Of a DNA stretch of 64,000 nt, positions 2,543 to 64,000 are shown piece by piece. Source of the DNA: Raillietiella orientalis (taxonomy: Eukaryota); contig JAYWIR010000040.1 of assembly GCA_036172245.1 (NCBI GenBank), forward strand, positions 124,001-188,000, written 5' to 3'. A model generated the notes under the pieces. It was not told the DNA's origin. It saw only the letters and a list, made by a program, of their open reading frames with translations, and searched no databases. Positions within the stretch are counted from its first letter, which is position 1. Every line of letters starts with the position of its first letter. The position numbers were made by a program, and so were the translations under genes.

Positions 2543-2554
2543 GTCCGCACTCGA

Positions 2555-33169: not shown

Positions 33170-36100
33170 GGGAGTTCTCTTGAACTAATGAGCAGCCGTT
33201 GCAATCCCTTGTGGAAAAACTCTGCGAAGAAAAGAGAGATTGAAGGTTCTGCGAGTTTCTTCACCGACAGTGAATGAAATTGCAGAACATGCTCTCATAG
33301 CTTTAGACCACCTTAACCTGGGACAATGAGGGACGAGTTGTTTGAAAGGAGGAAGCAAGGGGGAGAACCTAGACAAATGCTTGAAATAGTTTAAAAAACA
33401 TCATCGGGCAAAAAGTGACCACGCCAACGCGTAGTTCAGATTTTTCAGGTAATTAGCAATTGTTCTGCTCAGGAACATGCAAATTGTTGCGCAGAGCGTG
33501 CTTTTTATGTCACATTATGTGAAGCGACCAAGATAATCTCTTACAGATAGTTTACTCACAGGGCTCAAGGTCAGTGTGCTTCCGCTTTGCCAGAAAGTAT
33601 GAAGAAATGGAATTTTTCGGATGACTAAAGATAAGACCTCCAGGACTCCTACGAGTCCAAATGCAGGACTGCTGCTCGGTCCAATTTTCCGCTCACGAAG
33701 CCCGCCGGCCGTTTCTACAAACAAGAAAGGCTGGTGCCAATGCTCCCAATGAGCGAAAAACAGGGTATTTGTCAGGTTTAAGAACACATGAATGCCAAAG
33801 CCACTACTACCCTGTTTCCTCGATGCTTCTGTTGAAAGACCTTGGGCTTCGATTTAGCATTCTGGAAGATTAAGCAAAAATTCTTTGGATGGTAAGCCGA
33901 AAGCAGGAAATCGCTTGCTGAATGCAGCACTAAGCTGAAGACGTAAGCAGCTCAAACGGAGGCTTCAATGCAGCTGCAATTCATTCCTACTTTGTCGACT
34001 ACTTTGTCACCAAGCCCGCAATGTGACCCTGATTGCGGGACTGGCAATCCTTCTTCTGGCGGAGTGCGAACCTGCGGAAACTTCGATCTAACATCGCGAC
34101 TCTCTTTGTAGGTTAAGGAAAGCACCAGCAGACAAGGCTTGGCTTTCTTCGCACTGCTGACATCTTACAATAAATCGCTTCAAGAACGAGCTCAATTGAT
34201 GCCAGGATTGACAAAAATGGGTTTCGCTTTCATGTGTCAACTTGTTTATTGGTTTGCTGTACAGTGGACATTTAGGATCTTGTAGAACCCTTGGGACGGT
34301 ACTTTCAGAGTGCGCAAGACCTAAGAAAAGGAACGTGCCAAAGGGTATCTTATTTTTCGTCTTGCATTGGCTATTGTCCGCAAGCAAGATGGAGAACCAA
34401 TCGTTTATTTTATTTTTCCGATTGACGCTCCAGATTGCGATCATGGAATCCGGATTATCATTTAATGGCAATTCAAATAGTGTTTCATGGTTGTTGCAGA
34501 GTGAGTCCACCTACATGCTACTGGCACATACCATCCCATGCTAAGGATTTAGCACGCGGTGCCCTATTTCCAAAGTATTCGTCAATTGTTCATGCTGATC
34601 CTCTTACCGATGTTAATTTTTTTTCTTCTGTAATCAAAAACTGTGCGATAGTGTTTGCCGAAGAGGTCTCCTAGGATGATGGCCGTTTGGTGTGTATCGG
34701 TAGCGGTTATCAGAGTCTCACAAATAGGTTGCTGTGCACTGTAATCAGGCACCTGAAAATTTTTTTCATTCTGACAGAGGCGGAATATGTTGATTACCTC
34801 GATCAGGAATTCTTCCGGGAAGAACATGAAGACTTTGCTACTGATGGTCATTGTGAGGTTATCATTTTTACAGTCACAAGGTACCTAAGCGTCTTTTGAT
34901 TTTACAAAAATTCACAAATGCTTACTTACTAGTAAAGGATTAGCTAATTCGCATTTTTCGTTCAGAGCGGTAATGTATTTTCTGTGTTCCTTTTTGGAAA
35001 GGCCAATACCTCTGAAGCCAAAATGGAAAAATGCAGTACATCCACGACAAATATAATGTTTGCCTAATTTTAGACTGAAGGACGAAATTTCCAGCGAGTT
35101 TCAAGTGCACACTTGCATCATCGTACCTTTCCACTGGCAATGCCCATTGTGAGTTGTCGGCAGTTTTTTGATGTAGAAAAGGTCTCGCCAAAATGGGACG
35201 TCCGAAAATCAGCATTCCAGCATGCTTTTCCCAAGGATTCCTGCAAAGTTTGTTAATTACACTGTAATCTCATCGATGAAAAAGTGTTGTCAAGCAGTTC
35301 CTCGCTTTACTTAGTCATTCTCCCTTCAGCACATATGACGATATCGCACACAGTAAGCAATGATGACGTCAGTGAACCTGTGGTTCACTTGGTAGAGGGT
35401 GTATCTAAAGCACACATGCCCGCATTGACACAACTGAATCATTCTACTGATGTGGCAACCAGCAATGCCTCATTTGTGCAATCAATTCACATATGGGATG
35501 TGGCAATCAGCAATGCACGTTGATGAGCCTAAAGCATTTTCTCGCTCTGCCTTCCGCGGAAATTTTTCGTACTGCGCTCTTCTTTGTTACACGTTTACTG
35601 CAACATGCAATCCTCTCCGTTTTTAAAGATTTGCTTGCATTCCGGGCTTGCACATTAGAATTTGGCAACGATTTTCCTCTAAGGAGGTGCTTTCTTCTCC
35701 ATCACTGGTGCTAACAAATGATAGAAAGCAGCTGCTACGGCAAAATAACCAGATGGAAGATTAGCTGCTCCTCTGCAGACGACTCGTTTGGGAAGAACAT
35801 GTGGAAAGACCGTACCTAATTCTTGATGAGGTGCTTTCCTTTCTATCATTTGTTCAAACAGCCCGTGAAACTGCAATGCAAACGCACTGTATTGCCTGCA
35901 GATCGTATCCTTCGCAATGTCAGTATTGTCGTTTCGTGCAAAAAACGATGCTTGGAAAGCGACCCAATTCGAGGGCACTTCCAACTACAGGCAAACGAGA
36001 AGAAATCCCGGTTTCCCACTACCCAGTGGTTCAGAAAGGCATAGCTCCACTGATGCTCCTAGAAGTTCTATTCTCTCGCACTGAGTTCTGACGATGCGCA

Positions 36101-39100
36101 AGTAGAGATATTCGCCCTGCAGACAAGAAATCAGATGGAAAAGCTACGTTCTCATAGTAAAAAATTCACTTCATCTCTCAGTAATCTTGATCGTTCCAGG
36201 AGATTTCACTTTGCACATTCACAGAACAAAAGTGCCACAAATTCGAGTTCAAGGATGGCTTCTGCTTTTTTATTGTGGACCAAGCGGAGAAGAGTCACTA
36301 TGGCTTCAACCTCCTTCTGACGCTTTGGGAGACATTCGTATTCTACAATGGTGGAAATGAGAAGTAACATCAAAGAATGCGATGGAAGTCAGTAAAGAAG
36401 AATGCAGACGAAATGACCCAATGAATAGTCTGTTATGTCGAATGAATCTTGCATATGATTCCAGATAGTATGGAATCAGAAAAGAAAATTATCTTCTAAG
36501 GGATGAAGTGAACTTTCAAGAGACACTGCGCTCAATTTGAAATCATGCACACTACACGAAGTTCTGCATTTGGGCCATCATACGAGATCTGGTGAAATGG
36601 CTGCATCATCAGATTCAAAGTTGAAAGAGTGTTCAACAAGCATAGATAGTACGTGCAGCGAAAATTTGGTTTTCAGCAATTTCCCGGCTTGGGCAGCGTG
36701 GCTCGTTGATGACCGTAAAGCCGTGACGAATCCCTGACCCAACCTAATTTCGAACGCGCTTTCTGAAAAAAGATATTGTGCTCAAGGAAAGCCGTGTCGA
36801 GTACACTAGTGTTCACATAAAACCGAGAGAAAAGGAATCGTACGCAAAATAAAATTGTTCCTGTTCTGTTACAAATAACAAATTCATCCAACCGTGTAAC
36901 GACAAATTTGTGCTGGAGCATTACCTGCCATGATCAATGGAAATCGTTGGAGGCATTTTTGGATTCATGGATTTCAATCTCTGAAACCACGACGTGTTGG
37001 TGTATGCTTTGTCTAGCAGCTTCGGAGCGACTCCTAAGAATCCTTGGTGAGGGAAGGAAAACGCGTCCACAAGAATGGATTCAGAAACTTGCCAGAATTT
37101 CTGATTTATGAGAAGCTGATTTCCTATCTGGAAGTAAAGGACAATTGCTCTCACAAACTGACAGTACAAATTACTATGTGCCGTGCATCAAGGTGCCAAA
37201 AATAAAAAAACTCAATGTGGTATACAAAAGATGCTCTGAACTTCCACTAATGTCTGAGGTTAGCAAGAGCAGAGAAGCAAGCCTCTTGCTGTTCAAATCT
37301 TATTTGCTGATTTAATAAATTACTTTGTTCCACCAACCGTGCAAGAACTCTGTAACATTGTTCTGATGCAGATCCCCTTATCAGTCGGAAGATTGCAAAT
37401 TTATTGGGCAACAGAAAATGCTTGAGGAGATAGAATGATATCTTTTCCTGGCTGCAGTTTACAGTTATTTGTGTGAAAAGTAATCCTTTTTGTACAATCA
37501 ATTCACATTTGGGAGCTCACCGTAATGTCGTCTTCTCCTAAGATGAGGTAATCGCCTATATTGCTTCGCAAGTGCAATTCTTTTGAACGTTCACGGAAGC
37601 TACGAAAAGTGCAAGAGTCCACCAGTGAAAATTCTTTACAACACAAAATGTAATGACATTAATACAAGACAGAATTTCCTCTTACCAAGAGGCATGCTCA
37701 TATCCGATAGTACAATGGAGTTCAAAGTTCCATATGGAACTATAGACATGTCTCTCTCCGGAATTCCTACTTTTATTTGAAAATACAAATGCTGAAAAGA
37801 AAATAGATAAACAGCTTTCAAGTCAATACGCGGAACTTCCCATTGCTCGCAACCTAGTTTGACATTTCTGATTTCCGAATCCCAATGCTCTGCTAAAGAG
37901 AGCAATGGCTTCTCATCTGACTCAAAGGAGCGAATGTACCTGTTTATCAGGCAGCTCGTATGTTACACGTTCACTACCTTCAAGCCGCCATGCCCAGAAA
38001 ATTTTACATTTGAGTTAGGAAAAGAGGTTGCTCTTGGGTTGAAAAGCTTGCTTATCTCCGAGAATGATGCAAATATACTAACTAAGAAACTGGTTGCATT
38101 AGTCAGGCTAAAAGTCGAGTTTGTGATATATCACTGCAGAGAAGCCAATTTTCTGGGTTCAAGAACTCGTTAAGCGACAAGACGCTTTCTGTCATCCATG
38201 CACCAAACAGTCCAAGCGGCTGTGTCCTTTGCAATTTTCCCACTCCTCAGCTTCGATTGCATCCACAGTCAACCCTACCACAGTTAACGATGTATGTGCC
38301 TGGTACAACACACCGTGAACACTCATATCAACAAATTCGGCCTCGCTTTAAAATGACAGTGCAGACGTCACCCCGTATTCTTCTGCAAGTCTAAATGCAA
38401 AAGCGAGCGCAATAATCCCAATTTTTAGGGATATAAACTCAAATTAGCATGCAAATGGAAACGCAACAGAAAAAAAACACAGCCCAAACAAAAGTCACTC
38501 CCGATATTTGGAATAAATGTTTGATTGCTAAGAAGGCAACAGATCTGTGGCAGCACGTTGTGGGTAGAGCACTTTTATTATGTAAAACTAACATGAAATT
38601 GACACAACGAAACAAGGAAAGAATGGTGACCGGATTTCTTACCGCACCATCAGTGAATAGGGGAACCTCGAACCATCCGTCCTTTTCCTCTGGTGATTTC
38701 GCTCGTGCATTCCAATTTCCAAGTTGGCTTGCATGAGACCTCTTGAGTTCGACAGAACCATCCCTTTTTTCCTCACTACTCATCAGGAAGTGTGCGGAAG
38801 CGTGGGGTGTTCTGCGATGAAGACAATCGGTGACAGTGTTTTCAATATTTGAAATCCATTCAAGACGAAATTCGATACAGCATACTCCTCATCGTGGTCA
38901 TCCTAACTTCTATAGAATTACATAGCAACATGATTTGATATGCGATCGTGCATGGCTACTTCTGGGCGCGTGTCCACCCAGTTCTTTTCATGCATTTACC
39001 GATTGGGATGGACCCATTCAGCCAAGCAGCATCAACCCACAATAAGGAAATTTAGCATCAGGCCAAAATACACGCATGAAACGCTTGAAAATACAAAGGA

Positions 39101-41640
39101 AACGATGACGCAAAAAGAAAAAGGCATCAAATAAACTGGGTTCCCATCTAGAATATTGGCACTGCTCCTACTGCTACGGTACAAAGGACTACTGAAGGGA
39201 GAGCAAGCGGCTTTCGGCTGACCTTAAAAGCACAAAAGAAAGATTCCAACATGGAAAATAGAAGCTTCTACAGACGAAATGACTCTTGCGTCTGATGCTT
39301 CCACGAATTCACTGCAATCTGAAATGCGAAATGGAAGGCAGCAAACGCGATGGTACGAGAGGTCGCAAGAAGTTGATGTGCACTGCAAACATTGAGATTG
39401 CGGATGTGCAGCAGTGCGATAGTGTTGGAAATGTGTCGTAATGACCTCAGTAGACATTAGCGTGGTATCCACGAAGGCACTTGTGTGCCATTGGAATATA
39501 AGCCATCAGAGTGTATCGGTGAACTAAGGCCTTCATGAATTCGATACACCATCGATATTTGAGCTGATGAGGCAGAACTAGTCTTCTGCGAGGATTCCGT
39601 CGCGGAAAGATGACTTTTGCAAGAGCTCTAGGAATTCGCGGATAGAATCCACTCCAAGTTTCGCCGTTCTGGGGATCAGAATTTCGAACTCCACTCGGAA
39701 TTTGACATCATGTTAATGTGGACCCCATCGTGCAAATTTCTCAGGTAGATTGCATGTTATGTTCCAAGTGGAACGAAGCTTTGTGGTCTACTTTGTGGTC
39801 CTCGGTCTTCCGCGTTCAAACGGTCAACTGCAGCATTCCTATAAATTTATATGTTGAATGCACGCGGAAATATGGTAGAAAAGTACCCAGTTTCCTTGGT
39901 CGGGTTTTCGAAAAATGGAATTGTTGTTCTTTGCTTTGCAAAGAGAAATTGTCACCGTTTCACTCTTTAATGGAGAGATCTGAGAGATACGCGGAAGAAA
40001 CCAACCCATGTTCTGAACTCAAAGTTCTAAAATTCGGCTGAGCATCTTCAGAGCAAGATTCGAATGCGGAGACGTACCTTTTTATTTCGCTGCAGGAATG
40101 TAGAATCGCTATTGCAAAGATCAGGAGCTTCATTCCTTCCCAGCTACTGCAACTTTTTCCGGAAATTTCGATGTGATTGGCTGAAAAGAAAAAAAGACTT
40201 TTCGCTGTGGAAAGCAAATTCTGAATATGTTGAACCTCGCAAATGATTGAAGGTCGTGCTAAAGAGTAAATGTTACGTTTTTTTTCTACTCTAATGGGCA
40301 TTGGAGGATTACACTGATAACAGTGCTGTAATTTTAGATAAACCACAAAGTCGTCTTAGTGGTTTTCATTGACCCCGACTTGATAGCAGTTGAGAGTCTA
40401 CTGCTGTCGATCCGAATGACTATGCCTCGGTTGCATTGGAAAGTACTTTAAGATAGAAGTTCATCCGGAAATTTCATCAGGTGACCGAAGTGTGGTGCAG
40501 AATATCGCTGAAGCGGTGCAAGGTTTCGTCGCGATGTGGTTTCTTCCATCCCTTTCGTAAAAACGACTGAGCTTAAACTTCCAGGTAAAGTATAGATTGT
40601 AAACCTCTTCAAAGCACGAATCCTGAAGAAAGCACCCCATTTTGTCTTCAGAAACTTCTCTTGCTTTGCATTCGTGGAGATATGTTCGGTGCCTTGAAGA
40701 GCAGCTGCTTGCATTTGTGTCCAATTTCTGATTTGCTTCTGTTGTGAGGCCACGTGGTCGCAAAACTGAAGCAAAAATCTCTTTAGGCAGAAAAAAAGGA
40801 CACTTTGCAATGCTTTATCTTCATCTATATGTTAGCTTGTGCATCATTGGCTGCACCAAAATGTACACAATGCAGCAACCCAAAAGAAGTGTTCTTCATT
40901 GCGACAAAGTCTCTACTGAGGGGTTTGACCAGGAGGAGAAATTAGTTTCTTCAGCGATGCGCTCAGCTGCTAAGATCCCTTCTCAACTGAAGATGATGGT
41001 GGTCGAACATAAGCTTGTCACCGTTGAAAATCATCAAAGTAAGCGCACTGCTTTGTGGTTTCCATGCGACGCGGGGTGGTGCTCTTTTGTGCCGTCAAGA
41101 TAACAGGCAGCTGTAGGTATTGGAGTGGTAGCTGTAGGGCTAGATAAACCAGTTTAACGGATCAATCTCTGTGCGAATTCCGGTCACCAGGCGAAATCAT
41201 TTGCACTCGTTCGTATGTACAAGTATCAGTTTCATCATCGGAAATGTCGGAAGCGCATATTTTGCGGCGATTGCACTTTGGAGCAGCTTTGTGCCGTCTT
41301 TGCACATACATGATCTGAGTTTGTTTGCGCCTACTGAGCAAGCGATTGGCAAAACTAGTGTAAATAATCATTTTGTCATAATCATTTAAATAATCATAAT
41401 CATTTTCTCACGGGCAAAAAGGTGTCACGCGTCTGAATTTTGAGAGGTTATTCATGAAGTAATCAATTTTCAAGCTTATACACACCTTCACTCTACATCA
41501 ACTGCAGTGATGTTGGTAGCCACACGGAGGAACAGTGTACAGCAGAACTTTTTCTTAGAAGCTGCAGGCACGGAAGCACAGAAACCGTGCGCAGATGAAT
41601 GAGAAGATGGGGAGATGTGAAGGAAATTTGAATATGAAGT
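33170..41640. repeat. Segmental tandem duplication, copy 1 (partner ~56300-64000)
   Basis: Near-identical blocks: 33658-34656/56845-57843, 36470-36990/59690-60210, 38197-40235/61445-63484. Diverged homology lies between and beyond them (41530-41630 vs 63890-63990). Confidence 0.95.
34582..40133 (-). CDS. Secreted pepsin/cathepsin-D-like (A1) protein lacking both catalytic DTG motifs; 9 exons, about 356 aa
   Basis: Manual GT-AG model: 40133-40078, 37939-37864, 37791-37686, 37633-37521, 37127-36925, 35240-35127, 35074-34930, 34884-34798, 34752-34582 (1071 nt, open). Motifs: MKLLIFAIAIL signal-like; YFQIKVGIP; LGEDDITIG; QGFLGVAP; GMLIFG; QWALP; ICRGCTAFF; VPC; IILGDLFGKHYRTVFD. Exons 3-9 are secure; exons 1-2 are less so. 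Confidence 0.87.
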
Positions 41641-41939
41641 GAAGTCTTTATTCAGAACCTCAGACAGTTATTCGACACTTTGCGGTGACAGTGAAAATGA
41701 GATTCATATGATATTCGACAGCTGTGCATTGGTAACGTAGAACTTTTTACGTTGCATTTACTGAAACGAGCATTTTTTTTTCGTATGAATCCAGCTTTGC
41801 TCTATTCTCAATGCACGCATGACCCGGGACTCTTGTGATAGTCTCAATGCAAAAAGGAGAGCGGTCCGAAATTTTTTTTGGTCATTTCGGATTCTCTGTA
41901 GACGGAAACACTGCAGAGAAAGCAAGGGTAGTGCCTTCC

Positions 41940-42160
41940 AAATGATTCCTTCCAATAACTTTTGGAAACTTTTGATTTCTTAGAAAGCCACAGGTCTGTG
42001 GCAGCACGTTGTAGGTGACGCACTCTCGTTATGTGGAACTAACGAAATTAGTACAAGCAAACAAGGAAAGCAAGATGACTGAATCCCTATCCCTCCATCA
42101 GTGAATAGAGAAACTTGGAACCATCCAAACCATTTAGACATGCTTGGAAATGTTTTGCAC
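41940..42160. repeat. Third, diverged copy of the 38490-38700 / 61740-61950 segment
   Basis: Shared tctgtggcagcacgttgt, aacaaggaaag, ccatcagtgaatag and aaccatcc. Confidence 0.85.
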
Positions 42161-44659
42161 CTAACCACCCAAGTTGTCGTTCTTTGGTAACAGCTTTCCA
42201 GTGTTCAATTCCTTCAGCATTCATGACTCCGTTTGACTGCAGGTACACTGTATCCCTGAGAATAAACAGAATTCTCTTTAAAAAATGATGCACATCCGCT
42301 GGATGCTAGAATACGAAGCCACTTGTAATCATCTTAGGGTCTTTTAATGTTAGCAGATTTTCATGGATTTTTCTAAAGCACTTTCACGTTACAAGTATTA
42401 GCTTTCTATAGTAGAACTCAACAACATGCGTTCTACAAAAAAACACTCCTACTGAGTATTCAGTTTCAAGTGGTCCAAATCTTTCATGAGTAAAAATTCC
42501 TTAACGGGCTGTTCAAGGCACGGCAAGCGATGAGTGTGATGAGCAAATAGTGATTTCCATTTTGTAGGGAATATGCAGGGTGGAGTCCGTCTCCTTTTAC
42601 GTTTCTTTATTTACTTGATACAAAAAACACGTGTGATGGTTTCTACAATTTTGCTCTTCAAGAAGAGAAATCACTTGCAAATTTACCTTTAGACTAGTAG
42701 TACCTTTAGACCTTAGGACTGTGTAATTCAGAATTCATGCTAATTCAATAATAAAGAAGCATTCAAATAATGTAAATGAGTAGTAATGTGATTTCATAAA
42801 ATATGGTTATAGGGATAAAGTGCAAAATAATACTGCAAATATGGCTTGTCTCCTGTCCGGTTCGCCTTAAGGTGAATTCATTACACAATCGCAACGAATG
42901 AAATCGAATAAATAAACAGTTTTACTTTAACGATTGGTGGTCCTCGCTTCCCGCGCGAGTGAGCACTACACCGTCCCGACTTCATGTTTTGCAATCCTCA
43001 AGCAGTGCTAAAGAACCCAAGAAGGTACTCTGCCGCACGCACTGATGTTGGTTTCTTTTCTCAAAAGTCCTTGCAGAATATCTCTTGAGTTGCATGGTGG
43101 CCACTAGTCAGTTTCGTCTTGATGAAAATGCTCTTTAACAAGAACGTTATGATCATCTGCATGTCAGAGTTCTAGCTTCACACATCAACTTGAACATCGA
43201 ACAGACCTCTCAGGATCTCTAGTTTGGCTCCTTAGTACATTGAGGTGATCTATGGAACCACTTTTCACTCCTAGACAAGGGTTACGAAGGTGTAGGCATG
43301 TAGTTGGTCTTCGGTTGACCTGCATACCGGGCGCTGGCCGTCGTCGGGTTTTTCAGACTGATGTTGGAGTCACGTACCGCATAGGATGCTTCCATGGTAA
43401 AACATCAGGGGCTTCTGGACAGACACACCCTTCCATTTAACTGCATTAGTCAGTGTTGATACTTCTGTGCTGAAGTCTTTCGTCCAACGCCTGCTGGCAT
43501 TGTTAACCACAGGAATTTGTCAACACGATCTGTGCCAGGTGTGAGGAGAGGGAATTCCTCTCCCATTTGCGTGTGGATTATGTTGCTTTCCGACTTTTCT
43601 GGACACGTTTTCCCGACACCCTAGGCACCCCGACGACAACCTTGGGATGCTCTGAAACCCCTCCTCGATCGCGATACATCAGGTTGGAAGCCTTGCTAGC
43701 AGCCCGCTGCTAGCGTCGCGGAATTGCAGCTATCTGAAGCAATGCAAGTGAAAGGCACAGCGACAGGGATGTCAGCCACTTTGCTATGCGATTTGGATTT
43801 GATTTTTGGCCCCATTAGGAAACTCAGTCTCTAGTTTACTGGCAGTGGAGCATCTTCATCAGTAGTGGTCCTCCATCTAAATATGTCTATCGAGTTCTGA
43901 AACGTTAACGAGATAAGGCCCTATCTCGGCTCTATAAGCGAAATTCAACACTCCTCTTAGTGTTGAGTTAGATGTATGATTCTTTTTTGAAGCTGCATCA
44001 CATGTGCGATAAATAGCTCTTTATATCTTTAAATTGGCAGAGGTAGCTGTAGTCGAAGCCCACGGACCAATATGAGGGATAGAAAGCGTCTGTTTACACA
44101 TTCCAGCGGTCTGCAAACCCTAACACACCACAAAGGTCTTTACTCTGTTGCTGCATCATCCGGAATATCTTTGAGGATTTACCTGCTCGGCTATCATAGT
44201 AGAGGTATAGCAACAGCGATTAATGGATTTTCAGAGTGTCTCCAATATTTGTGAACATTTATTGCAGTCGGGAAAACTGAAATATATCTTTTAACATCAT
44301 TACCATTTTAAATTTCATTATTATCCATCATTTAATAATCAATTATTCAGCTTACTGTAATAATCGATAAATTGCAATATTTGCATATTATTATAATCAT
44401 TAACTCTAACTAATTACTATAATAATTTACAAAGACAGGTGTAGCTATCATGGAAATAGCAGATGTGCTGTGAGTTCAATGTTGTTTTGAAAATTTGCAT
44501 CAGCATGTGGGATTCTCAAGGGAATGACGAAGCTCAGCTAGACTGAGATTTTGTAAATACAAAGGACCAATACCAGTACCGGATCGTGCTACAAAATCAA
44601 GTGTGGCTAATTTTAGGACCTTATTACATATTTAGATTGATATCTACCTCTTTTTCCCT

Positions 44660-50900: not shown

Positions 50901-53900
50901 GTGCTCTCATTGGTTTCGTAGCATTGGCTCAGTGACCTTGACTAAGAGAATGCACCTCTGCTCACTGGAAGCTGGTACACTTGAGTCCCCGCACGCGGCA
51001 AGCAGAGCACCGCCGAGTGATCGCAAATTGCTCTCTTTGCTCACGCCTCTCAGGCATCGAACGTCGGTGAGAGGTCTTTACTGTTCCAAGCAGAATTTCC
51101 AATTGCGTCGGATCTTACGAAACCAAGGACCTCTTTGTTTTTCGAGAGCCGCAGCATTTACATGCTGCTTTTTACCTTTCTTCGATTGGAGCGTCCGTTT
51201 CCGTGCTGCTCTCTGCTTTGTAGAAGAATAGAGAAGAGCAGTCGGGACAACCTCCCCAGAAAGCGCAGCATGGCGACTCTTTGGAAACTTCAACTCCCAG
51301 CGCTAGAGAGAAGCGGAGAGAGGCGCAAGTTTCACGCTTTCCTCGGTAGATGGACAGATCGGGCGTGTCTTACCACGGGGAGGATGCAAGCACCACTGGA
51401 TAGGTGAGAAAGTCATACAAGCTCGCTGTTTTTGCTTCCAGTGACCCTCTTGAATAGGACGGAAAAGTACGCAAAAGTGGAGGCAATGCACCCATTGCGT
51501 TGTCTGTGAGACGAGGAACCTGCGTCGGAAGGGAAGTGGTGCTTCCCATCGAGAAACTTCTCCGCCACTCGGACACTTACTGACATAAATATGCATGGCC
51601 GAATGGCCGGATCTAACAGCTCAGAAGAGTAAGCCACCTTTTCTCTCCGCATCGAAATCCGAAAATCCTTCCAGACACTCTTTCAGAAGATACGTGAGTG
51701 CAATTCCTGCTCCCCACGCTGGCCGACGTGCGGAAAAAAAAAGGAACTTTAAAAGCAAGGTTATTCAGTCACAATTTCATTTTCATGAAACCGAGAAGAA
51801 TTTTGGATCATCAGTCTTAATGTGTGGTAATTAAGGAAAGCTATGTATCTTTCTCAGGAAATGTTTTGTCAGACATACAAAACTTTTACGCTCATTCGTT
51901 TCAGTCTGTGCTCTCTGAGATACTGAGATCAGTCCGTCGTGGCGGCCTTGTGGTTGCCGCTTTTGCGCACAGCAAGGTGTCGACGAATGCATAAAGTGAA
52001 GACCATAAGTTGATGACCTGAAGGAAGTTACAAGGCTGGGTGGGCCACCCGGCAAGAACTCAGAGCCTCATTTTCAACAAAATATTTGCATGGAACAAAA
52101 TGCTTAAACAGAAAGATGCAACAGTTGCAGATATTTTACTTTCAGAGTTTTTCAGACCGTTTACAGCCGAGATAACACTTATGGTTCATTCCTTAATGCA
52201 ACGAATTCAAAAGACAGGCCAAGCGCTTCCATTTCCCTGATGAGCCTGGTTGCGCCTCCTACTCAATAAAGAAGATCTTCTCTGACTTTTATCAGTCTGA
52301 TGTTTAAATGTGATCCCAGGAGTTTCGTCGATTTGCTCTGGTCTTTGAGCTGATGCTGAAAGTTTGCAGACACACTCTAGCCTCTTTGCTGTCCAACTCT
52401 GTTCGCATGTCTGCTATAGCGACTTTCTTCGATGAATGGTTTTTTCTTTTACCTATGTTGACTAGACAAACCGCTGTCGTAATCTCCCTCGCATTCATTT
52501 GGTTGCCTTGGTGAGCAGGCAAAAGTATGGAATGGAGACTTCCGTTGTTCACTTGCGTTTTTGGTAAAAATTTCCAAACAGAAGGCCTTGCGTCACCAAG
52601 GATCACACATGGGTTTCTTATTTCCTGAAAAAAATGGTCCATCTGTTTGGAAAACGCGCATTGTGCCACGAACTTCTTTCATTGCTTCAGAAGAGCACAG
52701 TAGATGAAATGTTCTTGTGAGACTTTCTTTCAATTCTTTATTCTGTGGATCTGAGAATGTCTTTGACGACTGAGCTCTTTAGCATACTGAGAAAAAACGT
52801 GGGTTTCTGAATGCCCCGTGAGCTCTTCCTCGATTTTGGATGTTTTATTCCATATAGCTCGATGTGTTCGTGTGCTGAAACACGATGGGCTGCTTCCTGC
52901 TGTAAGGATACACACAGAAAACTGACCTACATTCCTTGAAAAAAAAAAAGCTAGTTAGAAGCAAGAAATTCTATAGTTGATCTGTGAGTTCTTCCAGGAG
53001 TATTAAATGTGTATCACTGTTTCTTGGGTATTGATATTTGCGAAGACTGCATATGCTCCCAAGACTGCATTCCATAGCGCACTTCATTTTTAGATGCCGA
53101 AGTTCCGCGTTGCAGTTTTACTATGAAAGTGATGTGGTAGAAGTGGCATCTGCCAAAAGGGCTCCCAGGTTAGGACAGTACGAAATGTGACTGGTAGGTA
53201 CATGAATTTAGTAATCTTTCCCCACGAGCTTGCCTTCTTCAGTCACAGAGTGAAGACTCTTGTGTAATTCTGCATTTGAAGACAGAAAGATGTTCTGAGT
53301 ATTCTTGGATATTATCAGCGGTTGAGTGATGACTCTTAGAGAACAGTTTGAATTGATTAAGAATCATGGACACACTGGATAATCTTTAAATCAATCAGAA
53401 AATGCATCACTGTGTTTCAATTTTTCCCGGGCATCGTGATGTAATCTCCGAAGAGTACATAAAAATGCAACTTTTTGGCATGTGTACAGAATGTGTAGAC
53501 TTTGTCAGAAAAGTTCCTTGTTTTTCCTCCATGTGGATTTTCACACGTTTTTAACGAGGACAGTGCAACCCGGGGATTCATGCATTCGATGTACTTTCAG
53601 ATCGACAGTAAGAAGCATAGCTAGTGCTTCTATGCATGCCATATGAAAAGTGTAAGTATATAACTTCTTACATAACTCGCATGCTTTTACTTCACCAGCA
53701 TCACCATTGCACTGAAAAGCAATGTGGAAATGTGGAGAGATGTTATGTTGGAGCTCTAATGAATTCAGCAAAGCTTTTTATCATTGTGTTGCTAAAGGAT
53801 CTGTCTCTTTTTGCTTTCCACTGGCCTTGTTCGTTACCCACTACTTCCTTCGAACGATGTAGCTTCTGCACGTAGCTAGTTTCGCCATGCTCTTAAGATG

Positions 53901-54619
53901 TGCCATTCAAGGTTCTATTAAGCTTTCATGATGCTTTTGACAAATAGGGTATTTCCCACGAAAAAATTTCCTTTCACCAGTTATAGATTCCATTTTATTA
54001 TTTTCCCATGTTTCATTACGGTTTTATCTCTTCTTAATGCGACTGATCGCGCAAAGAGAACAAGTGCAGATCAGAAGCTCTTCATGGAGCTTATCTCCTT
54101 GTAACACATACTAAATGCCCTTAAAATTCACATACATTGGATCTCAGGATTCGTTCCTATGTATGTCAACACAAAGTCACATTTGTCAATCTCCAAGGTC
54201 ACGATCTGTGGAAAATTTTGCTGAAGGCGAGCAATAACTCATCATCGATCAATACTTTTGTGATCACACATTTCAATCTTCACAAATCGAGCACCCTGTG
54301 TTGTAGTAAATGCACCTGTATCCTGGATGTGCAGGTCCCAATATTTACATTTCTCATAGCTTTCTTTTTTTCGGTAGGGATGATTGCTTGCGTTTAATGG
54401 AGAAGTAAATGCAGTGAGAAACTTTAGTATTGATTACTTTAGTATTGAGTTTACTCTCGAGGAAGAAATTTCCCCAAGAAACTGTAAAATCTCTCTTTTA
54501 CTTTTACGCTCAGGAGAAGGCAAAATTGAGCCATCGTACCCATGAAAATCAGAACTGAGTTTTTCACCCGGATAAGCGGGGACTTTTATTTTTAAAATTC
54601 TACATTATTTGTTACAATT

Positions 54620-55560
54620 AAATTTAGTCTTTTAAGCACTGTTTCTTCCAGAACACATGGTTCTGGAAGTGTTTTTTCACATACCGACCCGCTGGCCGGT
54701 GTGGTACTCTACACGGACGGAAGGGACGGGAAAAGAAAAAAGAAACAAAAGACAAAAAAAGAAAAAACGCTGGGGGACAAAGTTTTATGGGGTGGAGAGG
54801 AATGGGATGGGATCACTGCTTGCCGGAAGGAGTCCCCTGCATCCGGTTTCGGGCAAATGCCGGTTGAATTGCCCTTAACCGGCGCCATCGGCATGCTTTC
54901 TCCATGGAGAGGAATGCCCAATGAATGGCGTTCCGGCTTCTACGTCCTCTCCTCGATGCCTTTCACTTTTCCAGTATTCCGCGTATGCAGCGGAGAACTG
55001 CAGCACACGCGGCTGCTGGCAGGGAGTTCCGCGTCATGAGACGACGGAAAATGTCTTTTGTGTCGCCCACCGGAATGTTCACAATCGACGAGAGTCGATC
55101 CCACATGCGGCGGAGGGCGACACACTCGATAGGTAGGTGGTTGAAGGTCTTCCTATCCCTGCACCCTGCACAATTGGCATCCACACTCTCTGATGTGCAG
55201 TGGAAGAGGCGTGCTCTGTCAAAGAGCCCCCAATGGAACACTAGCAGCGCTATCTCTTGCCGCTCTAGGGGGAAAGTGCTGTTGTCCCAATGCGTTGGGG
55301 CCACTTCTCCTCCTCCGGAGGTATGCCGAGTAGCTCGCCCCAGCGCACAAGTCCGTTAGGCGGGATACTAGGGGTTGCAGCGTCCTAATATTCCCGAGAT
55401 GTCCACACCTTCAAGAGTTTTCTTCTGCTTCTGATGAGGTAGAACACTTCCCACGATGCCTTCTGTCGGCTGTTCCCAGCGTTTATTAGGGTGGGCAGCA
55501 AGGGGGCAGAACTGAGTTACATGTGGCTTGCAAAGCTTTTTGCCACAACTCTTTCTTTAC
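54620..55560 (-). mobile_element. Tx1/L1-like ORF2 3' end with T-rich 3'UTR and terminal hairpin
   Basis: ALLVFHWGL..CAGCRDRKTFNHLPIECVALRRMW. T-rich tract (A-rich on +) at 54730-54768. Hairpin cttccagaac-acatg-gttctggaag at 54645-54669. Confidence 0.8.
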
Positions 55561-56299
55561 ATACCAGAGTTTTCAAAATCATCAAAGATTTCATGCAGCA
55601 TTAAATAGCTACTCATATCTCTTCAAGTTCGCGAGGCAACCAACAGCATCTGAACTAGGCTTTCTGTCTTTTTAAGACACCATACTTTACGCATCACTAC
55701 GCACCTTACAAAATGATGCATTCTGGTGAATATCGCCATTTCTTGCACATTGCTACAAATCGCTACGCGCTGAGAAGTCCGTGTTGCAATTTGCAAAACA
55801 GGACGCACCTTCTTGGTGCACCCGCCTTGAGCTTTATTTTTATCCAAGTGATGGTGCAGGAGAGATTCCACTTCACCTGTAGGCAACTGCCACTGCTTTC
55901 CCACAGGGAATACAGTTCTTTGGTGGAACACGTGGCAAACGAACGTGGCCATTTCGTCGGTTTGTCTACGACTCTGTGCAAATATAGCCTATCCAGCCGC
56001 AGAAGAGGCACGGAATTTTCAGAGCTCATGCTGTTTGAGCAACATCACTTGGCCGCGATCACTGCCGCCGAGCACGAAAAAGTATGCAAGGTGGCAGGTG
56101 ATCGATTCGTTAAGATTCAGCAGGGTGGCAACCTGCATAAGGGTAAACCACGAGAGCTTTATGCATTTCCTGTAGCGAAAAAAGGGCATGCTAAAATACG
56201 AAGACAGTGGATACCTGGGACGTAACAATGGAGATTCAGAACAGAAAAAAACCTTCCTTCTCCTTGGTGATTTACACGCAACCTCTCCCTGGAAGATCT

Positions 56300-59200
56300 G
56301 TTGCAACACTGGGCAATGAGTGGTCTTTTAACTGCTCCTCTTCCGAGCAGCCTACGGAGTTACTTATGGAAAGCGTGAGAGTTTTTCTGACCTACCGTTC
56401 CCCCTATGCAACTCTGTGCTGTTAATCTACAGAAGGAGCTGCACAGTTGAAAGGCAGTGGCGACCTTGAATGAGTTCGTTGCACATGCTTTCAAAGCTTT
56501 GGACTCATTAGATGACAACAGGGAGAAACTAAGGAAAACAATGTGGTTAACTGCTTCTAGTAGTAAAAAACCGCACTATTGAAAGTTAGTTTGCCATCGC
56601 TGTGTGCGGTTTTCCGAATTCCCAGGTGATTCCTAAAAATTCTGCTAAGGAAGATGCTAAAGGTTTCGTAGAGACTGTTTTAAATGACGCAGCTTCAGAG
56701 GCAGCCAAAATAATATCTTACAGTTTGCTCACAGGGCTTGAGGTTAGTGCTCTTCCGCTACCCTGCAAAGCATGAAGAAATGAAATTCCCCTGTTAACTG
56801 CAGCAGCAACTTCCAAAATGAAACTTCCACGGCTCTCGTGAGTTCAAATGCAGGACTGCTGCTCGGTCCAATTTTCCGCTCACGAAGCCCGCCGGCCGTT
56901 TCTACAAACAAGAAAGGCTGGTGCCAATGCTCCCAATGAGCGAAAAACAGGGTATTTGTCAGGTTTAAGAACACATGAATGCCAAAGCCACTACTACCCT
57001 GTTTCCTCGATGCTTCTGTTGAAAGACCTTGGGCTTCGATTTAGCATTCTGGAAGATTAAGCAAAAATTCTTTGGATGGTAAGCCGAAAGCAGGAAATCG
57101 CTTGCTGAATGCAGCACTAAGCTGAAGACGTAAGCAGCTCAAACGGAGGCTTCAATGCAGCTGCAATTCATTCCTACTTTGTCGACTACTTTGTCACCAA
57201 GCCCGCAATGTGACCCTGATTGCGGGACTGGCAATCCTTCTTCTGGCGGAGTGCGAACCTGCGGAAACTTCGATCTAACATCGCGACTCTCTTTGTAGGT
57301 TAAGGAAAGCACCAGCAGACAAGGCTTGGCTTTCTTCGCACTGCTGACATCTTACAATAAATCGCTTCAAGAACGAGCTCAATTGATGCCAGGATTGACA
57401 AAAATGGGTTTCGCTTTCATGTGTCAACTTGTTTATTGGTTTGCTGTACAGTGGACATTTAGGATCTTGTAGAACCCTTGGGACGGTACTTTCAGAGTGC
57501 GCAAGACCTAAGAAAAGGAACGTGCCAAAGGGTATCTTATTTTTCGTCTTGCATTGGCTATTGTCCGCAAGCAAGATGGAGAACCAATCGTTTATTTTAT
57601 TTTTCCGATTGACGCTCCAGATTGCGATCATGGAATCCGGATTATCATTTAATGGCAATTCAAATAGTGTTTCATGGTTGTTGCAGAGTGAGTCCACCTA
57701 CATGCTACTGGCACATACCATCCCATGCTAAGGATTTAGCACGCGGTGCCCTATTTCCAAAGTATTCGTCAATTGTTCATGCTGATCCTCTTACCGATGT
57801 TAATTTTTTTTCTTCTGTAATCAAAAACTGTGCGATAGTGTTTTGTGAAGAGGCCTCCTAGGACGATCACCCCTTCCTCTGCTCCGATATCTTCCATGAG
57901 GAATTCACAGATGGGTTCCGTTGTACTGTGATCAGGCAGCTGAAAATATCTTTGATTCTGCCAGAGGTGGGAAATATTACCTCTACTAGGAATTCGTCTG
58001 GGAAGAACGTAAAGACTTTGCCACTGATGGTCAATGTGATATTGTTATTTTTACAGGCACAAGGTACCTAAGCGTCCTATGTGTTCGAAAAAATTCATAA
58101 TTGCTCACTTACTAGAAAGCTATTAGCTGTTCCGCATTTCCTATTGAATGAAGTGACGAATATTTCGTATTCCTTTTCGGAAAATCCGATTCCCCTGATG
58201 GAAAAATCGAAAATTGCAATGCACGGACGACAAATATAATGTTCGCCTAACCTAAAACTGGAAGACGAGATTTCCATCTGATTTAAAATGCACACAATCT
58301 TTAATGTACCTTTCCACTGGCAATGCCCATTGTGAGTCGTTGGCAGTTTTTTGATGTAGAAAAGGTCTCGCCTCAATACGGCGTCCGAAAATCAGGGTTG
58401 CATCATGCCTTTCCCAGGGATACCTGCAAAGTTTGTTCAATGCACTGTAATCTTATGAGTGAAAACCAAAATATTAAGTAGTGCTCATTTCCTCTTAAAA
58501 TTTTCTAACGATTAAAATTTGCATAGAAGTTTGTGAACGATGTGCTTCCCCTTCCATCATTGGTTCTAAGAAATGACAAAAAGTGGCAGCGAAAGAATAG
58601 CTAGATAATGGATGAGCTGTGTGTCTCCGGAGGTGTTTTAGCTCCATGGAATGGGACGGCAATCACCTCTCTAGGAAGAACCTCCTTCAGAACTGCAGCC
58701 ATTTCCGATGAGGTGCTTTTTTTTTTTTGATTTGTTCCAACAGTCCGTTGAGGCGCAATGCGAACGAAGTGTATTGCCAGCGATTCCAATCCTTCTCTTC
58801 GTGCAAGAAAAGATACTTGTGAAGCCACAAAATTTGATGGCACTCCGATTTAGGGTAAATAGAATGAAATTTCAGTTTCCGTTTACCTAATGTTTTAGAA
58901 TGGTATACACTTAATTGTACCTCTTGAAAATACCGCACACAAGATGGCAATCCATCTGATCCGTCTGAGAGCAGCCCGTCAAATCCATAGGTTGCCAATC
59001 AAGGAAATAGAATTAAGTTATAGAAGACTCGCTTCCTAGCCGACAACCCTCACGAGGTAGTGCAGAACGTGGATCTCTCTTTGCAATTGTTCTTCCGTCT
59101 TTCCGACATGGGAAGTAGTGGCCGATTTCGGAGGTGCACCAATACCGGGTCAATTCGCGACAAAAGAGGAGCAAGTATCAAGCATCCCTTTCATTTCAAA

Positions 59201-62200
59201 AACGTAAATAATTTACTGGCTTCCAGATAGGCGATGTATCAGATATCAAGCTGATAAGAAGAGATTTCGTTTTATCAATCCTACAGTTCATTTTAGAAGT
59301 TCGATAATGTGGCTCTGCCGTAGAAGAGCTCTGCCTATGCTGTCTTTAGCACTGAGTTCAGGAGGAACTCAAGTGAAAGAATTTGCTCAGTACATTCGAC
59401 TTTAGATGGGAAAATACATTTTTAATGTAAGGAAATCATTTCATCCATCAGGAAATTTTCATCGTACCAAGTAGCGTATACTGCCCCCGATCACAAAAGA
59501 AAAAATTAACAATTTGAGTACGAGCACTGATCCTGGTTCCCTATTGTAGAACAAGCAAAGTAGAATCACTTTTGCTTCAATCTCCTGATGTTTTGGCATA
59601 TGTTCGTATTGTGCTTTGGTGGTAATGAAAATTGTCATCAAAAGTTGCGATGAAAGCCAGTGCGAATCTTGCATGTCATTCCAGATACCATGGAATCAGA
59701 AAAGAAAATTATCTTCTAAGGGATGAAGTGAACTTTCAAGAGACACTGCGCTCAATTTGAAATCATGCACACTACACGAAGTTCTGCATTTGGGCCATCA
59801 TACGAGATCTGGTGAAATGGCTGCATCATCAGATTCAAAGTTGAAAGAGTGTTCAACAAGCATAGATAGTACGTGCAGCGAAAATTTGGTTTTCAGCAAT
59901 TTCCCGGCTTGGGCAGCGTGGCTCGTTGATGACCGTAAAGCCGTGACGAATCCCTGACCCAACCTAATTTCGAACGCGCTTTCTGAAAAAAGATATTGTG
60001 CTCAAGGAAAGCCGTGTCGAGTACACTAGTGTTCACATAAAACCGAGAGAAAAGGAATCGTACGCAAAATGAAATTGTTCCTGTTCTGTTACAAATAACA
60101 AATTCATCCAACCGTGTAACGACAAATTTGTGCTGGAGCATTACCTGCCATGATCAATGGAAATCGTTGGAGGCATTTTTGGATTCATGGATTTCAACCT
60201 CTGAAACCACTACATGTTTCTGCATTCTTTGTCTAGCAGCTTCGGAGAGACTCCTAAGAATCCTTGGTAAGATGTGTAAAACGCTCCCTCAGAGCTAGAA
60301 ACTTGCCAGAATTTCTGATTTATAACAAGCTGATTTCCTATCTGGAAGTAAAGGACAAGTGCCTTCATCAACTGAGAGTACAAATTACTATGTGCCGTGC
60401 ATCAAGCTGACAGAAATAGAAAAATCACATGTATACACAAAAGATGCGCACAACTTCCACTGGTGTCCTAGCTAACTTTGCATAGAGACTTTCATCTCTT
60501 GAGGGTCCGGTGTTAGTCGGTGCTTTAGAAAGCTAGTTTGATTCGCCAATAGTGCAAGTCATTTGAGAAACTCTGTATAACGTCGTTCTCTGATGCAAAC
60601 ATGATCACCAGCTGGCAGATTGCAAATTCGTTATGTAAAAGAGAATAACACGAGAGATGGCATGGTATCGTTTCTTGTTAGTATCACTTACAACTACTTG
60701 TGGGAAGATTGATTCTTTCAGTGTAGCAATTTACGTATGGAATCTCACCGTGATGTCGTCTTCTCCCAAAGTGATGTTATAGTTGTCCGTATCGCTTCCA
60801 AAGCTCTCTTGGAAACTGCTCCCTTTGAAGTTGATGAAAGTGCAAGAGTCCTCTATTGAATGTCCTGGAAACCATAAAATGTAACCACAAACTATTCTAA
60901 GCCAAAATTATCTCTTACCATGAGCCTTGTTCAATGAAAATAGAATAATGGAGTCAAAAGCTGCATGAGGAAGCAAAGCCATCCTTAGTTCTGGAATTCC
61001 TATGTTGAGTTTTAAATACGAATGCTGAAAAAAATAAAGATGGACAACTTTGAACTCAATATGCACACTATTGGGCTTAATTATTGCTTGCAACCTATTT
61101 TCACATTTCTTATTCCCGAATTTGCATATTATACTAACAAGATCAATGGTCTGTCTTCCGAATCAAAGGATGGAATATACCAGTTCCACAGGCTTCTCGA
61201 GTGTTAATCGTTAACTACGTTTACACCTATGTGTTTGAAAAAATTCTTATCTGAGTGAGGGAAAGGGAAAGACTGTTGTTCAGCTAGAAGGCCTGCCTCA
61301 CTCGGAGAATCTTGGAAACAAATAAAAAAGAGATCTGGCCGCAAGGAACAACACCCTCAGTCAAGATATTCGTGATACTTTGCTGTACAGAAGAGAACTG
61401 CTTACTCCATAACATTATGATACGACAGCGCACTTGGCATTATACATGCACCAAACAGTCCAAGCGGCTGTGTCCTTTGCAATTTTCCCACTCCTCAGCT
61501 TCGATTGCATCCACAGTCAACCCTACCACAGTTAACGATGTATGTGCCTGGTACAACACACCGTGAACACTCATATCAACAAATTCGGCCTCGCTTTCTA
61601 ATGACAGTGCAGACGTCACCCCGTATTCTTCTGCAAGTCTAAATGCAAAAGCGAGCGCAATAATCCCAATTTTTAGGGATATAAACTCAAATTAGCATGC
61701 AAATGGAAACGCAACAGAAAAAAAACACAGCCCAAACAAAAGTCACTCCCGATATTTGGAATAAATGTTTGATTGCTAAGAAGGCAACAGATCTGTGGCA
61801 GCACGTTGTGGGTAGAGCACTTTTATTATGTAAAACTAACATGAAATTGACACAACGAAACAAGGAAAGAATGGTGACCGGATTTCTTACCGCACCATCA
61901 GTGAATAGGGGAACCTCGAACCATCCGTCCTTTTCCTCTGGTGATTTCGCTCGTGCATTCCAATTTCCAAGTTGGCTTGCATGAGACCTCTTGAGTTCGA
62001 CAGAACCATCCCTTTTTTCCTCACTACTCATCAGGAAGTGTGCGGAAGCGTGGGGTGTTCTGCGATGAAGACAATCGGTGACAGTGTTTTCAATATTTGA
62101 AATCCATTCAAGACGAAATTCGATACAGCATACTCCTCATCGTGGTCATCCTAACTTCTATAGAATTACATAGCAGCATGATTTGATATGCGATCGTGCA

Positions 62201-64000
62201 TGGCTACTTCTCGGCGCGTGTCCACCCAGTTCTTTTCATGCATTTACCGATTGGGATGGACCCATTCAGCCAAGCAGCATCAACCCACAATAAGGAAATT
62301 TAGCATCAGGCCAAAATACACGCATGAAACGCTTGAAAATACAAAGGAAACGATGACGCTAAAAGAAAAAGGCATCAAATAAACTGAGTTCCCATCTAGA
62401 ATATTGGCACTGCTCCTACTGCTACGGTACAAAGGACTACTGAAGGGAGGGCAAGCGGCTTTTGGCTGACCTTAAAAGCACAAAAGAAAGATTCCACCAT
62501 GGAAAATAGAAGCTTCTACAGACGAAATGACTCTTGCGTCTGATGCTTCCACGAATTCGCTGCATTCTGAAATGCGAAATGGAAGGCAGCAAACGCGATG
62601 GTACGAGAGGTCGCAAGAAGTTGATGTGCACTGCAAACATTGAGATTGCGGATGTGCAGCAGTGCGATAGTGTTGGAAATGTGTCGTAATGACCTCAGTA
62701 GACATTAGCGTGGTATCCACGAAGGCACTTGTGTGCCATTGGAATATAAGCCATCAGAGTGTATCGGTGAACTAAGGCCTTCATGAATTCGATACACCAT
62801 CGATATTTGAGCTGATGAGGCAGAACTAGTCTTCTGCGAGGATTCCGTCGCGGAAAGATGACTTTTGCAAGAGCTCTAGGAATTCGCGGATAGAATCCAC
62901 TCCAAGTTTCGCCGTTCTGGGGATCAGAATTTCGAACCCAACTCGGAATTTGACATCATGTTAATGTGGACCCCATCGTGCAAATTTCTCAGGTAGATTG
63001 CATGTTATGTTCCAAGTGGAACGAAGCTTTGTGGTCTACTTTGTGGTCCTCGGTCTTCCGCGTTCAAACGGTCAACTGCAGCATTCCTATAAATTTATAT
63101 GTTGAATGCATGCGGAAATATGGTAGAAAAGTACCCAGTTTCCTTGGTCGGGTTTTCGAAAAATGGAATTGTTGTTCTTTGCTTTGCAAAGAGAAATTGT
63201 CACCGTTTCACTCTTTAATGGAGAGATCTGAGAGATACGCGGAAGAAACCAACCCATGTTCTGAACTCAAAGTTCTAAAATTCGGCTGAGCATCTTCAGA
63301 GCAAGATTCGAATGCGGAGACGTACCTTTTTATTTCGCTGCAGGAATGTAGAATCGCTATTGCAAAGATCAGGAGCTTCATTCCTTCCCAGCTACTGCAA
63401 CTTTTTCCGGAAATTTCGATGTGATTGGCTGAAAAGAAAAAAAAGACTTTTCGCTGTGGAAAGCAAATTCTGAATATGTTGAACTTTGCAAATGATTGAA
63501 GGTCGTGATAAAGAGTGAATGTTACGTTTTTACAGGATAACACTGGTAACAGTGTTGCAGTGTTAGACAAACCACAAAGTCGTCTGGTTGCTTGGCAGCA
63601 ATCCCAACTTAACAGCAACTGTCATGCGCAGCGAAAAACCCTGCAGCTATTGCTCTCGAAGTGGTAGCTATTGGACAAGGAAAATTGATACATTCTCTTA
63701 GTCTGTTTGTACCTTCTGAGCAAATGGGTACAAGCTTATCTTATAATCAGTCGACGTAAATTTGTAGGAGGTAAAGGTTATGGAATGATTGTAGTTTAGA
63801 AAACCCTTCCGTCAAGCAATCAACTTCGAAGTTCGTACGCACCTGAAGTCCACTGTACACGAAATGCAGTGTCGTTGCTTACCAAATGAATGAACAGTGT
63901 ACAGGAGAACTTTTTTCTGAACTTGGATGCACGCAACCACACAAACCGTGCGCAGATGAGTGAGAGTTTAGGGCGATCTGGAGGAAAGCATGGTTTCAGG
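56300..64000. repeat. Segmental tandem duplication, copy 2
   Basis: See copy 1. Offsets for the three near-identical blocks are 23187, 23220 and 23248. Confidence 0.95.
57769..63381 (-). pseudogene. Paralogous 9-exon pepsin-like pseudo-protease gene with premature stops
   Basis: Same exon layout: HSYLKLNIGIPELRMALLPHAAFDS; LGEDDITIG; YQGFLGVSP; ICRPCIAIFDFS; IVLGGLFTKHYRTVFD. In-frame TAA at 61129-61131 (exon 2) and TAG at 60210-60212 (exon 5). The exon-2 acceptor reads CTG instead of CAG. Confidence 0.82.

Follow-up and report, generated by a model that had tools for sequence, protein, structure and literature searches.

Near-identical blocks alternate with old, diverged exons in a tandem pair of predicted pepsin-like pseudoprotease genes from Raillietiella orientalis

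We analyzed a window of 64,000 nucleotides (nt) from Raillietiella orientalis (contig JAYWIR010000040.1, positions 124,001 to 188,000; coordinates below count from the first base of the window) that carries two copies of a nine-exon gene on the minus strand. Copy A occupies 33528-41626 and copy B 56705-63987, at a spacing of about 23.2 kilobases (kb). The layout of the pair was checked in three ways, by repeat search, by blastn of the window halves and by global MAFFT alignment, and all three returned A and B as collinear direct copies. The repeat search found five direct-repeat families, every one at a spacing of 23183-23248 nt. In blastn, 33653-35282 matched 56840-58465 (91.1% over 1636 nt), 36444-37248 matched 59664-60461 (93.9% over 808 nt) and 38194-40282 matched 61442-63531 (99.0% over 2090 nt), and weaker matches extended the unit on either side, to 33528 at one end and to 41626 (63987 in B) at the other. 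Whole-window self-blast found no third copy, and in tblastn with the joined proteins all other matches in the window had an expectation value (E) of at least 0.58.

The gene models are based on reading frames, splice signals and the comparison of A with B. They comprise the following features:

34582..40133, minus strand: copy A gene from ATG to stop, with canonical splice sites
40133-40078, 37791-37686, 37633-37521 and 37127-36925, minus strand: exons 1, 3, 4 and 5 of copy A
35240-35127, 35074-34930, 34884-34798 and 34752-34582, minus strand: exons 6, 7, 8 and 9 of copy A
38107, 38089 or 38077 (candidate acceptors) to 37978, minus strand: candidate exon 2 of copy A
57769..63381, minus strand: copy B gene, with canonical splice sites
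63381-63326, 61300-61225 (candidate), 61024-60919 and 60864-60749, minus strand: exons 1, 2, 3 and 4 of copy B
60341-60145, 58423-58310, 58257-58113, 58067-57981 and 57939-57769, minus strand: exons 5, 6, 7, 8 and 9 of copy B
60210..60212, minus strand: in-frame TAG in exon 5 of copy B, where A has TCG at 36990-36992 (alignment and translation)

From exon 3 to exon 9, exon ends follow GT..AG in both copies. These seven exons join in frame to give 312 residues and a stop in copy A, and 936 nt or 312 codons in copy B, interrupted by the one internal stop listed above. Exon 1, which ends in phase 2, encodes what was judged by eye to be a hydrophobic leader of 18 residues. Exon 2 is placed as a candidate: many frame-compatible options exist, a homologous placement is possible in both copies, and exons 1 and 2 together would add about 45-60 residues to the 312 of exons 3-9. 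Intron 1 plus the exon 2 region takes up 2.0-2.3 kb. Between exons 3 and 9 the introns measure, in A and B respectively, 52/54, 393/407, 1684/1721, 52/52, 45/45 and 45/41 nt, several of them being only 41-54 nt long. Such short introns, together with acceptors of the TTTCAG type, bring nematode genes to mind.

Exon lengths differ between the copies by 0, +3 or -6 nt, next to intron differences of 2 and 4 nt (52/54 and 45/41). Exons 8 and 9 of copy B lie in different frames that are reconciled only through splicing, because intron 8 is 41 nt long against 45 nt in A. With the 208 observed differences scattered randomly over the 804 non-converted coding nt, about 7 stops would be expected; one is seen (P ~0.005). 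The coding frame has thus been preserved, and the gene model is supported by the exon and intron length differences, the frame switch in copy B and the shortage of stops. On the plus strand of the gene region, none of 19 open reading frames (ORFs) rose above a Pfam cut-off. One sequencing run, a DNA run (X1), was found to share words with the locus (0.07 of the sampled words); no RNA run was among those listed.

Between exons 2 and 3, the stretch 37864-37939 of copy A is open and preceded by a usable CAG acceptor; at the corresponding place in B (61135-61195) there is CTG, and a TAA lies inside. The stretch in A resembles the mature N-terminus of pepsins. An additional exon there (A ~37939-37864) was considered and dropped, B having a stop and no acceptor. 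The two stretches may be what is left of an ancestral exon 2 that was longer.

Aligned along their length, the two copies resolve into three near-identical blocks, two islands of divergence and diverged flanks:

33658..34656: block 1 in copy A, identical to B 56845-57843 at 999 of 999 positions
56845..57843: block 1 in copy B, counterpart of A 33658-34656
36470..36977: block 2 in copy A, identical to B 59690-60197 at 507 of 508 positions
59690..60197: block 2 in copy B, counterpart of A 36470-36977
38197..40235: block 3 in copy A, identical to B 61445-63484 in 2025 of 2040 columns
61445..63484: block 3 in copy B, counterpart of A 38197-40235
36978..38196 in A and 60198-61444 in B: divergence island I, with the 5' part of exon 5, intron 4, exon 4, intron 3, exon 3 and the exon 2 region, at 61-81% identity
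34657..36469 in A and 57844-59689 in B: divergence island II, with the 5' part of exon 9, exons 8, 7 and 6 and distal intron 5
33528..33657: 3' flank at the far end of the unit, old yet still homologous, with identity in 92 of 144 columns (blastn and alignment)
40236..41626: upstream flank of copy A, homologous to the upstream flank of B and diverged (blastn and alignment)

A first-pass annotation of this DNA had described three near-identical blocks of about 1.0, 0.5 and 2.0 kb within 33658..63484, and the counts above agree: the span runs from the first base of block 1 in A to the last base of block 3 in B. The contents it had assigned to the blocks, namely the C-terminus with the 3' flank, the end of exon 5 with the start of intron 5, and the signal-peptide exon with most of intron 1, are borne out as well. 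Block 1 runs from the final 24 codons and the stop of exon 9 into 924 nt of 3' flank. Block 2 takes in the final 53 nt of exon 5 and the adjoining 455 nt of intron 5, and the TAG of copy B lies 13 nt 5' of its edge in the direction of the gene. Block 3 comprises 102 nt upstream of the ATG, which is the promoter edge, then exon 1 and 1881 nt of intron 1 (~95%). Its differences are 14 substitutions and a single 1-nt insertion or deletion in an A-run (40188), and nine of these 15 fall within 38928-39317. Blocks 1 and 2 are set apart by 1.8 kb of diverged DNA.

Outside the blocks, exons are 61-88% identical, and the short introns, like intron 4, reach 66-78%. Mid-intron 5 drops to 37% and is, in practice, beyond alignment. 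Within island II, the exons range over 65-88% and intron 5 over 37-59%. G+C content gave no clear sign of GC-biased conversion, at 0.41-0.45 in the blocks against 0.39-0.43 in their surroundings. Intron 1 of both copies also contains a repeat of about 160 nt (38520-38678 and 61768-61926), probably a small dispersed element; it occurs again, at 78%, at 41971-42126 in the spacer upstream of copy A.

Gene conversion leaves runs of identity longer than the spread of differences allows, and adjoining segments of different age with abrupt edges; the locus has both. The unit aligns over 6985 columns, of which 1413 differ; its longest unbroken stretch of identity is 999, compared with an average of 34, and never more than 58, in 1000 column shuffles. 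Following identity along the alignment gives near-identical blocks set among diverged stretches. Five of the six block edges are abrupt, identity dropping over a few bases from 100% to about 60-65%; it fades more gradually at the upstream end of block 3 and, to a lesser degree, at the 5' end of block 2. The blocks themselves differ by 0%, 0.2% and 0.7%, against divergence per silent site (dS) of 0.16-0.84 in the exons.

Divergence also falls into strata along the coding sequence. Identical residues between A and B number 11 of 35 in exon 3, 17 of 38 in exon 4, 52 of 66 in exon 5, 29 of 38 in exon 6, 25 of 48 in exon 7, 21 of 29 in exon 8 and 38 of 57 in exon 9, exactly reproducing the earlier hand counts for exons 3 and 8. 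By the Nei-Gojobori method, dS is 0 in the converted ends of exons 5 and 9, 0.16-0.19 in exon 6 and the 5' part of exon 5, and 0.41-0.84 in exons 3, 4, 7 and 8 and the 5' part of exon 9; over all non-converted coding DNA it is 0.43. At the rate of block 3 (15/2040), about 7 differences would be expected in block 1. It has 0 in 999, so the two blocks are not of one age.

Beyond the blocks, the flanks of the unit are homologous but old at both ends, with identities of 64%, 73% and 77%. Upstream, the homologous patches are 40236-40356 (73%) and 41489-41626 against 63851-63987 (77%). Between them A carries about 0.9 kb extra (40356 to 41489, against 63585 to 63851 in B), and this sequence (A 40357-41488) was either gained by A or lost by B. 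Diverged yet homologous flanks, mostly abrupt edges and at least two age classes among the blocks sustain the earlier argument that a single duplication cannot give both ages.

We next consider what the two genes encode. Against Pfam, the ORF covering exons 8 and 9 of copy A matches PF00026 (eukaryotic aspartyl protease) with E 4.4e-4 and 20.2 bits, the cut-off being 19.9; the last-exon ORF of copy B scores 13.9 bits, below the cut-off. The match covers profile positions 263-313 of 315. Of the minus-strand ORFs searched (80 in A, 54 in B), none but that of the last exon matches Asp. A two-sequence profile of exon 9 returned 28 PDB matches at E<=1 (best E 0.0013). All 28 are A1 aspartic proteases aligned at their C-termini, including plasmepsins, phytepsin, cardosins and pepsins, and the single sequence behaved likewise. 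In a protein atlas, 22 of 30 feature matches were Asp clusters, with a top score of 0.94. PDB searches with exon 7 of A, exon 7 of B, exon 3 and the exon 7 profile gave no match. Two other PDB matches, of exon 5 (E 0.085) and of the exon 3 profile (E 1.6), were to unrelated proteins and were set aside. Two large protein libraries, which may be poor in animal proteins, yielded no relatives; among longer proteins, exons 9 and 5 gave 6 and 23 word-sharing candidates, none of them scoring. The sole match at E<=0.001 for the 100-residue ORF of exons 8 and 9 was a 739-residue, internally repetitive protein, which was taken as spurious.

Catalysis in peptidase family A1 depends on two Asp-Thr/Ser-Gly motifs, one in each lobe. 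A D[TS]G[ST] motif does not occur in any minus-strand frame of A or B. At the expected places, located by comparison with the pepsin motifs as we know them, copy A has PYGTLN and FHFGFR and copy B has PHAAFD and FDFSIR. In copy A these positions are 176 residues apart, with the second 116 residues from the end; in pig pepsin the motifs are 183 residues apart and the second is 111 from the end. The first-pass annotation had written of cleft-forming exons, and a working protease with such a cleft finds no backing here: both catalytic aspartate motifs are gone in both copies, and B has its in-frame TAG. Members of the family are made as secreted precursors of about 370-400 residues with a signal peptide, and those of mammals have nine exons (PMC2682831). 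The architecture of A and B agrees with this, the leader being judged by eye and exon 2 a candidate. By this architecture the N-terminal three quarters would be pepsin-like too. Taken together, the sequences suggest that A and B are secreted pepsin-like (peptidase A1-like) pseudoproteases that have lost both catalytic motifs.

The diverged exons bear on how the islands persisted. Over the 268 non-converted codons, the ratio of replacement to silent divergence (dN/dS) is 0.67 (bootstrap 0.48-0.94). It reaches 1 only in exon 3 (1.14, 35 codons) and the 5' part of exon 9 (1.07, 32 codons), where it is indistinguishable from 1. The dN/dS above 1 that marks variable cores in antigen, effector or toxin-type families was not found. 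The most diverged exons (3, 4, 7 and the 5' part of 9) hold, by position, the former catalytic sites and the flap, and the introns of the islands are as diverged as the exons beside them. Because of these introns, age accounts for the diverged exons as well as diversification does. Although the three tracts make up 52% of the unit, they include just 181 of its 992 coding nt, and two of them end inside exons. Random placement of tracts gave a mean of 556 coding nt, with 181 or fewer in 2.9% of 20000 trials (P = 0.029), in a test made weak by there being only three tracts and by the clustering of exons. Of the earlier proposal that exons of the cleft stay or become diverse, the positional part stands, in that divergence is greatest at the former catalytic sites and flap and the tracts are poor in coding DNA; diversifying selection is not supported by the dN/dS values. 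Cassette-like exchange, with the likeness to antigen, effector or toxin families that the first-pass annotation drew, stays speculative, the window showing just two copies. Retention of the frame while residues change almost freely fits either relaxed constraint or a mixture of constraint and positive selection. The data are partly suggestive of selection keeping the exons apart.

We think it probable that an old tandem duplication has been overwritten by at least two or three recent tracts of gene conversion between the two loci. The pair would be tandem paralogues, encoding a secreted pepsin-like protein that has lost both catalytic aspartate motifs, and would first have diverged by about 0.4 substitutions per silent site. 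DNA would then have been copied between them at least two or three times, during repair of breaks with the neighbor as template. The latest events would have left the tracts of 1.0, 0.5 and 2.0 kb, and older ones the patches of 81-88% identity over exon 6 and the 5' part of exon 5. The tracts would have run mostly in non-coding DNA, stopping soon after they entered exons. More than one event is indicated by the age difference between blocks, the 1.8-kb diverged gap and the dS strata across the exons. Recent segmental gene conversion, as the first-pass annotation had proposed, is also the best explanation of the old homologous flanks, the abrupt edges and the age classes.

Several points weigh against this interpretation. 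Strand invasion and recombination between DNA that is only 60-70% alike are inefficient, which makes a first conversion awkward to explain. Because of that inefficiency we infer repeated homogenization: the blocks may have been kept alike by conversion ever since the duplication, and the two islands of the mature domain may have escaped it and then become too different to convert again. The mechanism, its direction and this upkeep of the blocks are likewise deduced, and conversion as a whole is read from two sequences of one assembly. The pieces of the DNA sequencing run that fall here (12, of ~151 nt, depth 2-4) include none that spans a block edge, and show no joints. Copy B may be a pseudogene; its TAG could reflect recent disablement, a polymorphism or an error. 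The three codon positions carry similar numbers of differences (74/62/72), which fits weak constraint. As to the protein, exons 3, 5 and 7 matched no aspartic protease in Pfam or PDB, whether as single exons or, for exons 3 and 7, as two-sequence profiles, and membership of the family is therefore carried by exon 9 alone.

The same mosaic could be produced, between two sequences, by a young duplication of the whole 7-kb gene whose inner segments were later replaced by conversion from diverged family members elsewhere; the identical blocks would then be remnants of the young duplication, and further paralogues may exist outside the window. We regard this as quite improbable. A young duplication should leave flanks that are identical or unrelated, but both outer flanks are old and homologous (64-77%), and this disfavors imports from a third copy. 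At least four long imported tracts would be needed, flanks included, and block 3 is measurably older than block 1. An assembly artefact is less credible still, and we judge it very unlikely. It could take the form of haplotypes placed in tandem, of collapsed repeats, or of polishing with mis-mapped reads that made moderately similar stretches identical; 999 nt of perfect identity is a possible product of over-polishing, and the sole difference of insertion or deletion type lies in an A-run (40188). Yet the window has no N, and the 15-kb spacer and the DNA 3' of each copy share only a 210-nt repeat at 73%. Since spacer and 3' sides are unrelated, A and B are not alternative versions of a single locus. 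Polishing cannot turn old DNA into abrupt-edged blocks, because reads with only 60-70% identity do not cross-map; it could at most have erased a few real differences inside the blocks. Among the sequenced pieces, one is exact to a diverged part of A (34824-34974) and another carries the extra A of copy B at 40188, although the run may come from the assembly's own sample.

A further possibility keeps conversion and adds selection for different binding surfaces, with converted variants of the mature domain being removed so that islands of divergence persist in spite of conversion. The shortage of coding DNA in the tracts, the two blocks ending within exons and a dN/dS of ~1.1 in exon 3 and the 5' part of exon 9 while the frame was kept all point this way, and a like pattern has been described for other paralogue pairs (PMC3728101). 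We hold this addition to be possible but doubtful. The upper bootstrap limit of overall dN/dS lies below 1, the island introns are as diverged as the exons, as mere escape from conversion would give, the placement test is weak, and the stop codon in copy B counts against selection. A bolder version, which we consider unlikely, is a fast-evolving family of secreted pepsin-fold binding proteins in which ongoing conversion unifies promoter, leader, intron 1 and tail, selection keeps the former cleft different, and the disabled copy B may store variant segments for its neighbor. If true, a dead protease would underlie a system of constant frame and variable core.

Elsewhere the window is rich in remains of the long interspersed nuclear element (LINE) type, with endonuclease, reverse-transcriptase and zinc-knuckle ORFs, and it also contains 5S ribosomal RNA (rRNA) genes:

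3024-6329, minus strand: 1102-residue ORF with a CCHC zinc knuckle
3-836 and 2608-3072, minus strand: endonuclease-type ORFs
16323-16441, minus strand: 5S rRNA gene, 91 bits
17577-17695, plus strand: weaker 5S rRNA gene, 52 bits
18003-18121, plus strand: 5S rRNA gene, 92 bits
26065-26589: reverse-transcriptase ORF
31002-31361: endonuclease ORF

Positions 1-6329 are G+C-rich (58-62%) and probably represent one or two LINE-type retroelements. Look-alikes of the 1102-residue LINE ORF1 in the protein atlas are mostly from arthropods. The three 5S rRNA genes lie within 1.8 kb in mixed orientation, and self-blast shows these genes as inverted and direct repeats. A 1.1-kb inverted repeat at 77% identity (10881-11959 and 24515-25580) and the ORFs near it are likely further retroelement copies.

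Comparison with known systems places the locus among familiar ones. Human CYP21A2 and CYP21A1P are an active gene and a pseudogene in tandem that exchange short conversion tracts and are about 98% alike throughout. Like them, A and B are tandem, a few tens of kb apart, and one copy may be disabled; unlike them, A and B have a background only 60-70% alike, with just three near-identical blocks. The cockroach allergen Bla g 2 is an inactive pepsin-like protein, and A and B would resemble it, by description and not by sequence, as invertebrate secreted proteins of predicted pepsin fold that lack protease activity. Some pregnancy-associated glycoproteins have altered catalytic sites, are inactive and are thought to bind rather than cut. 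In ruminants these glycoproteins form a large family of placental pepsin-like proteins, and, as predicted proteins, A and B would share with them secretion, a pepsin-like character, nine exons and local multiplication (PMC2682831). They differ in that A and B share only the C-terminal signature of the family and have lost both motifs in both copies. Some introns of A and B are also only 41-54 nt long, unlike those of mammalian genes, which is a sign of a non-mammalian source.

The closest parallel to the mosaic itself is GOT1p1 and GOT1p2 of the copepod Tigriopus californicus, mosaic paralogues with conversion and islands of divergence (PMC3728101). As in A and B, very low and high divergence alternate there, which is explained by ongoing conversion that misses some regions. 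A and B differ in that low divergence is found mainly in non-coding DNA, with 100% identity over 1 kb, and in that they are two sequences from one assembly. These comparisons come from a few keyword searches of the literature, which leave room for earlier descriptions of the pepsin-like family.

Patchy conversion between tandem paralogues is textbook knowledge, and this mosaic does not change what is known; the locus is a new case of that process, in an unplaced family of pseudoproteases. What sets it apart is the extreme contrast between 1 kb without a difference and adjoining DNA that is about 65% alike, the confinement of the tracts almost wholly to non-coding DNA, and a motif-less pepsin-like protein that retains its frame as its residues change with almost no restraint. 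For annotation the locus carries a warning, in that an identity per gene or a single duplication date is meaningless here. If the family proves large and expressed, it would offer a useful case of how conversion and selection together shape secreted pseudoenzymes.

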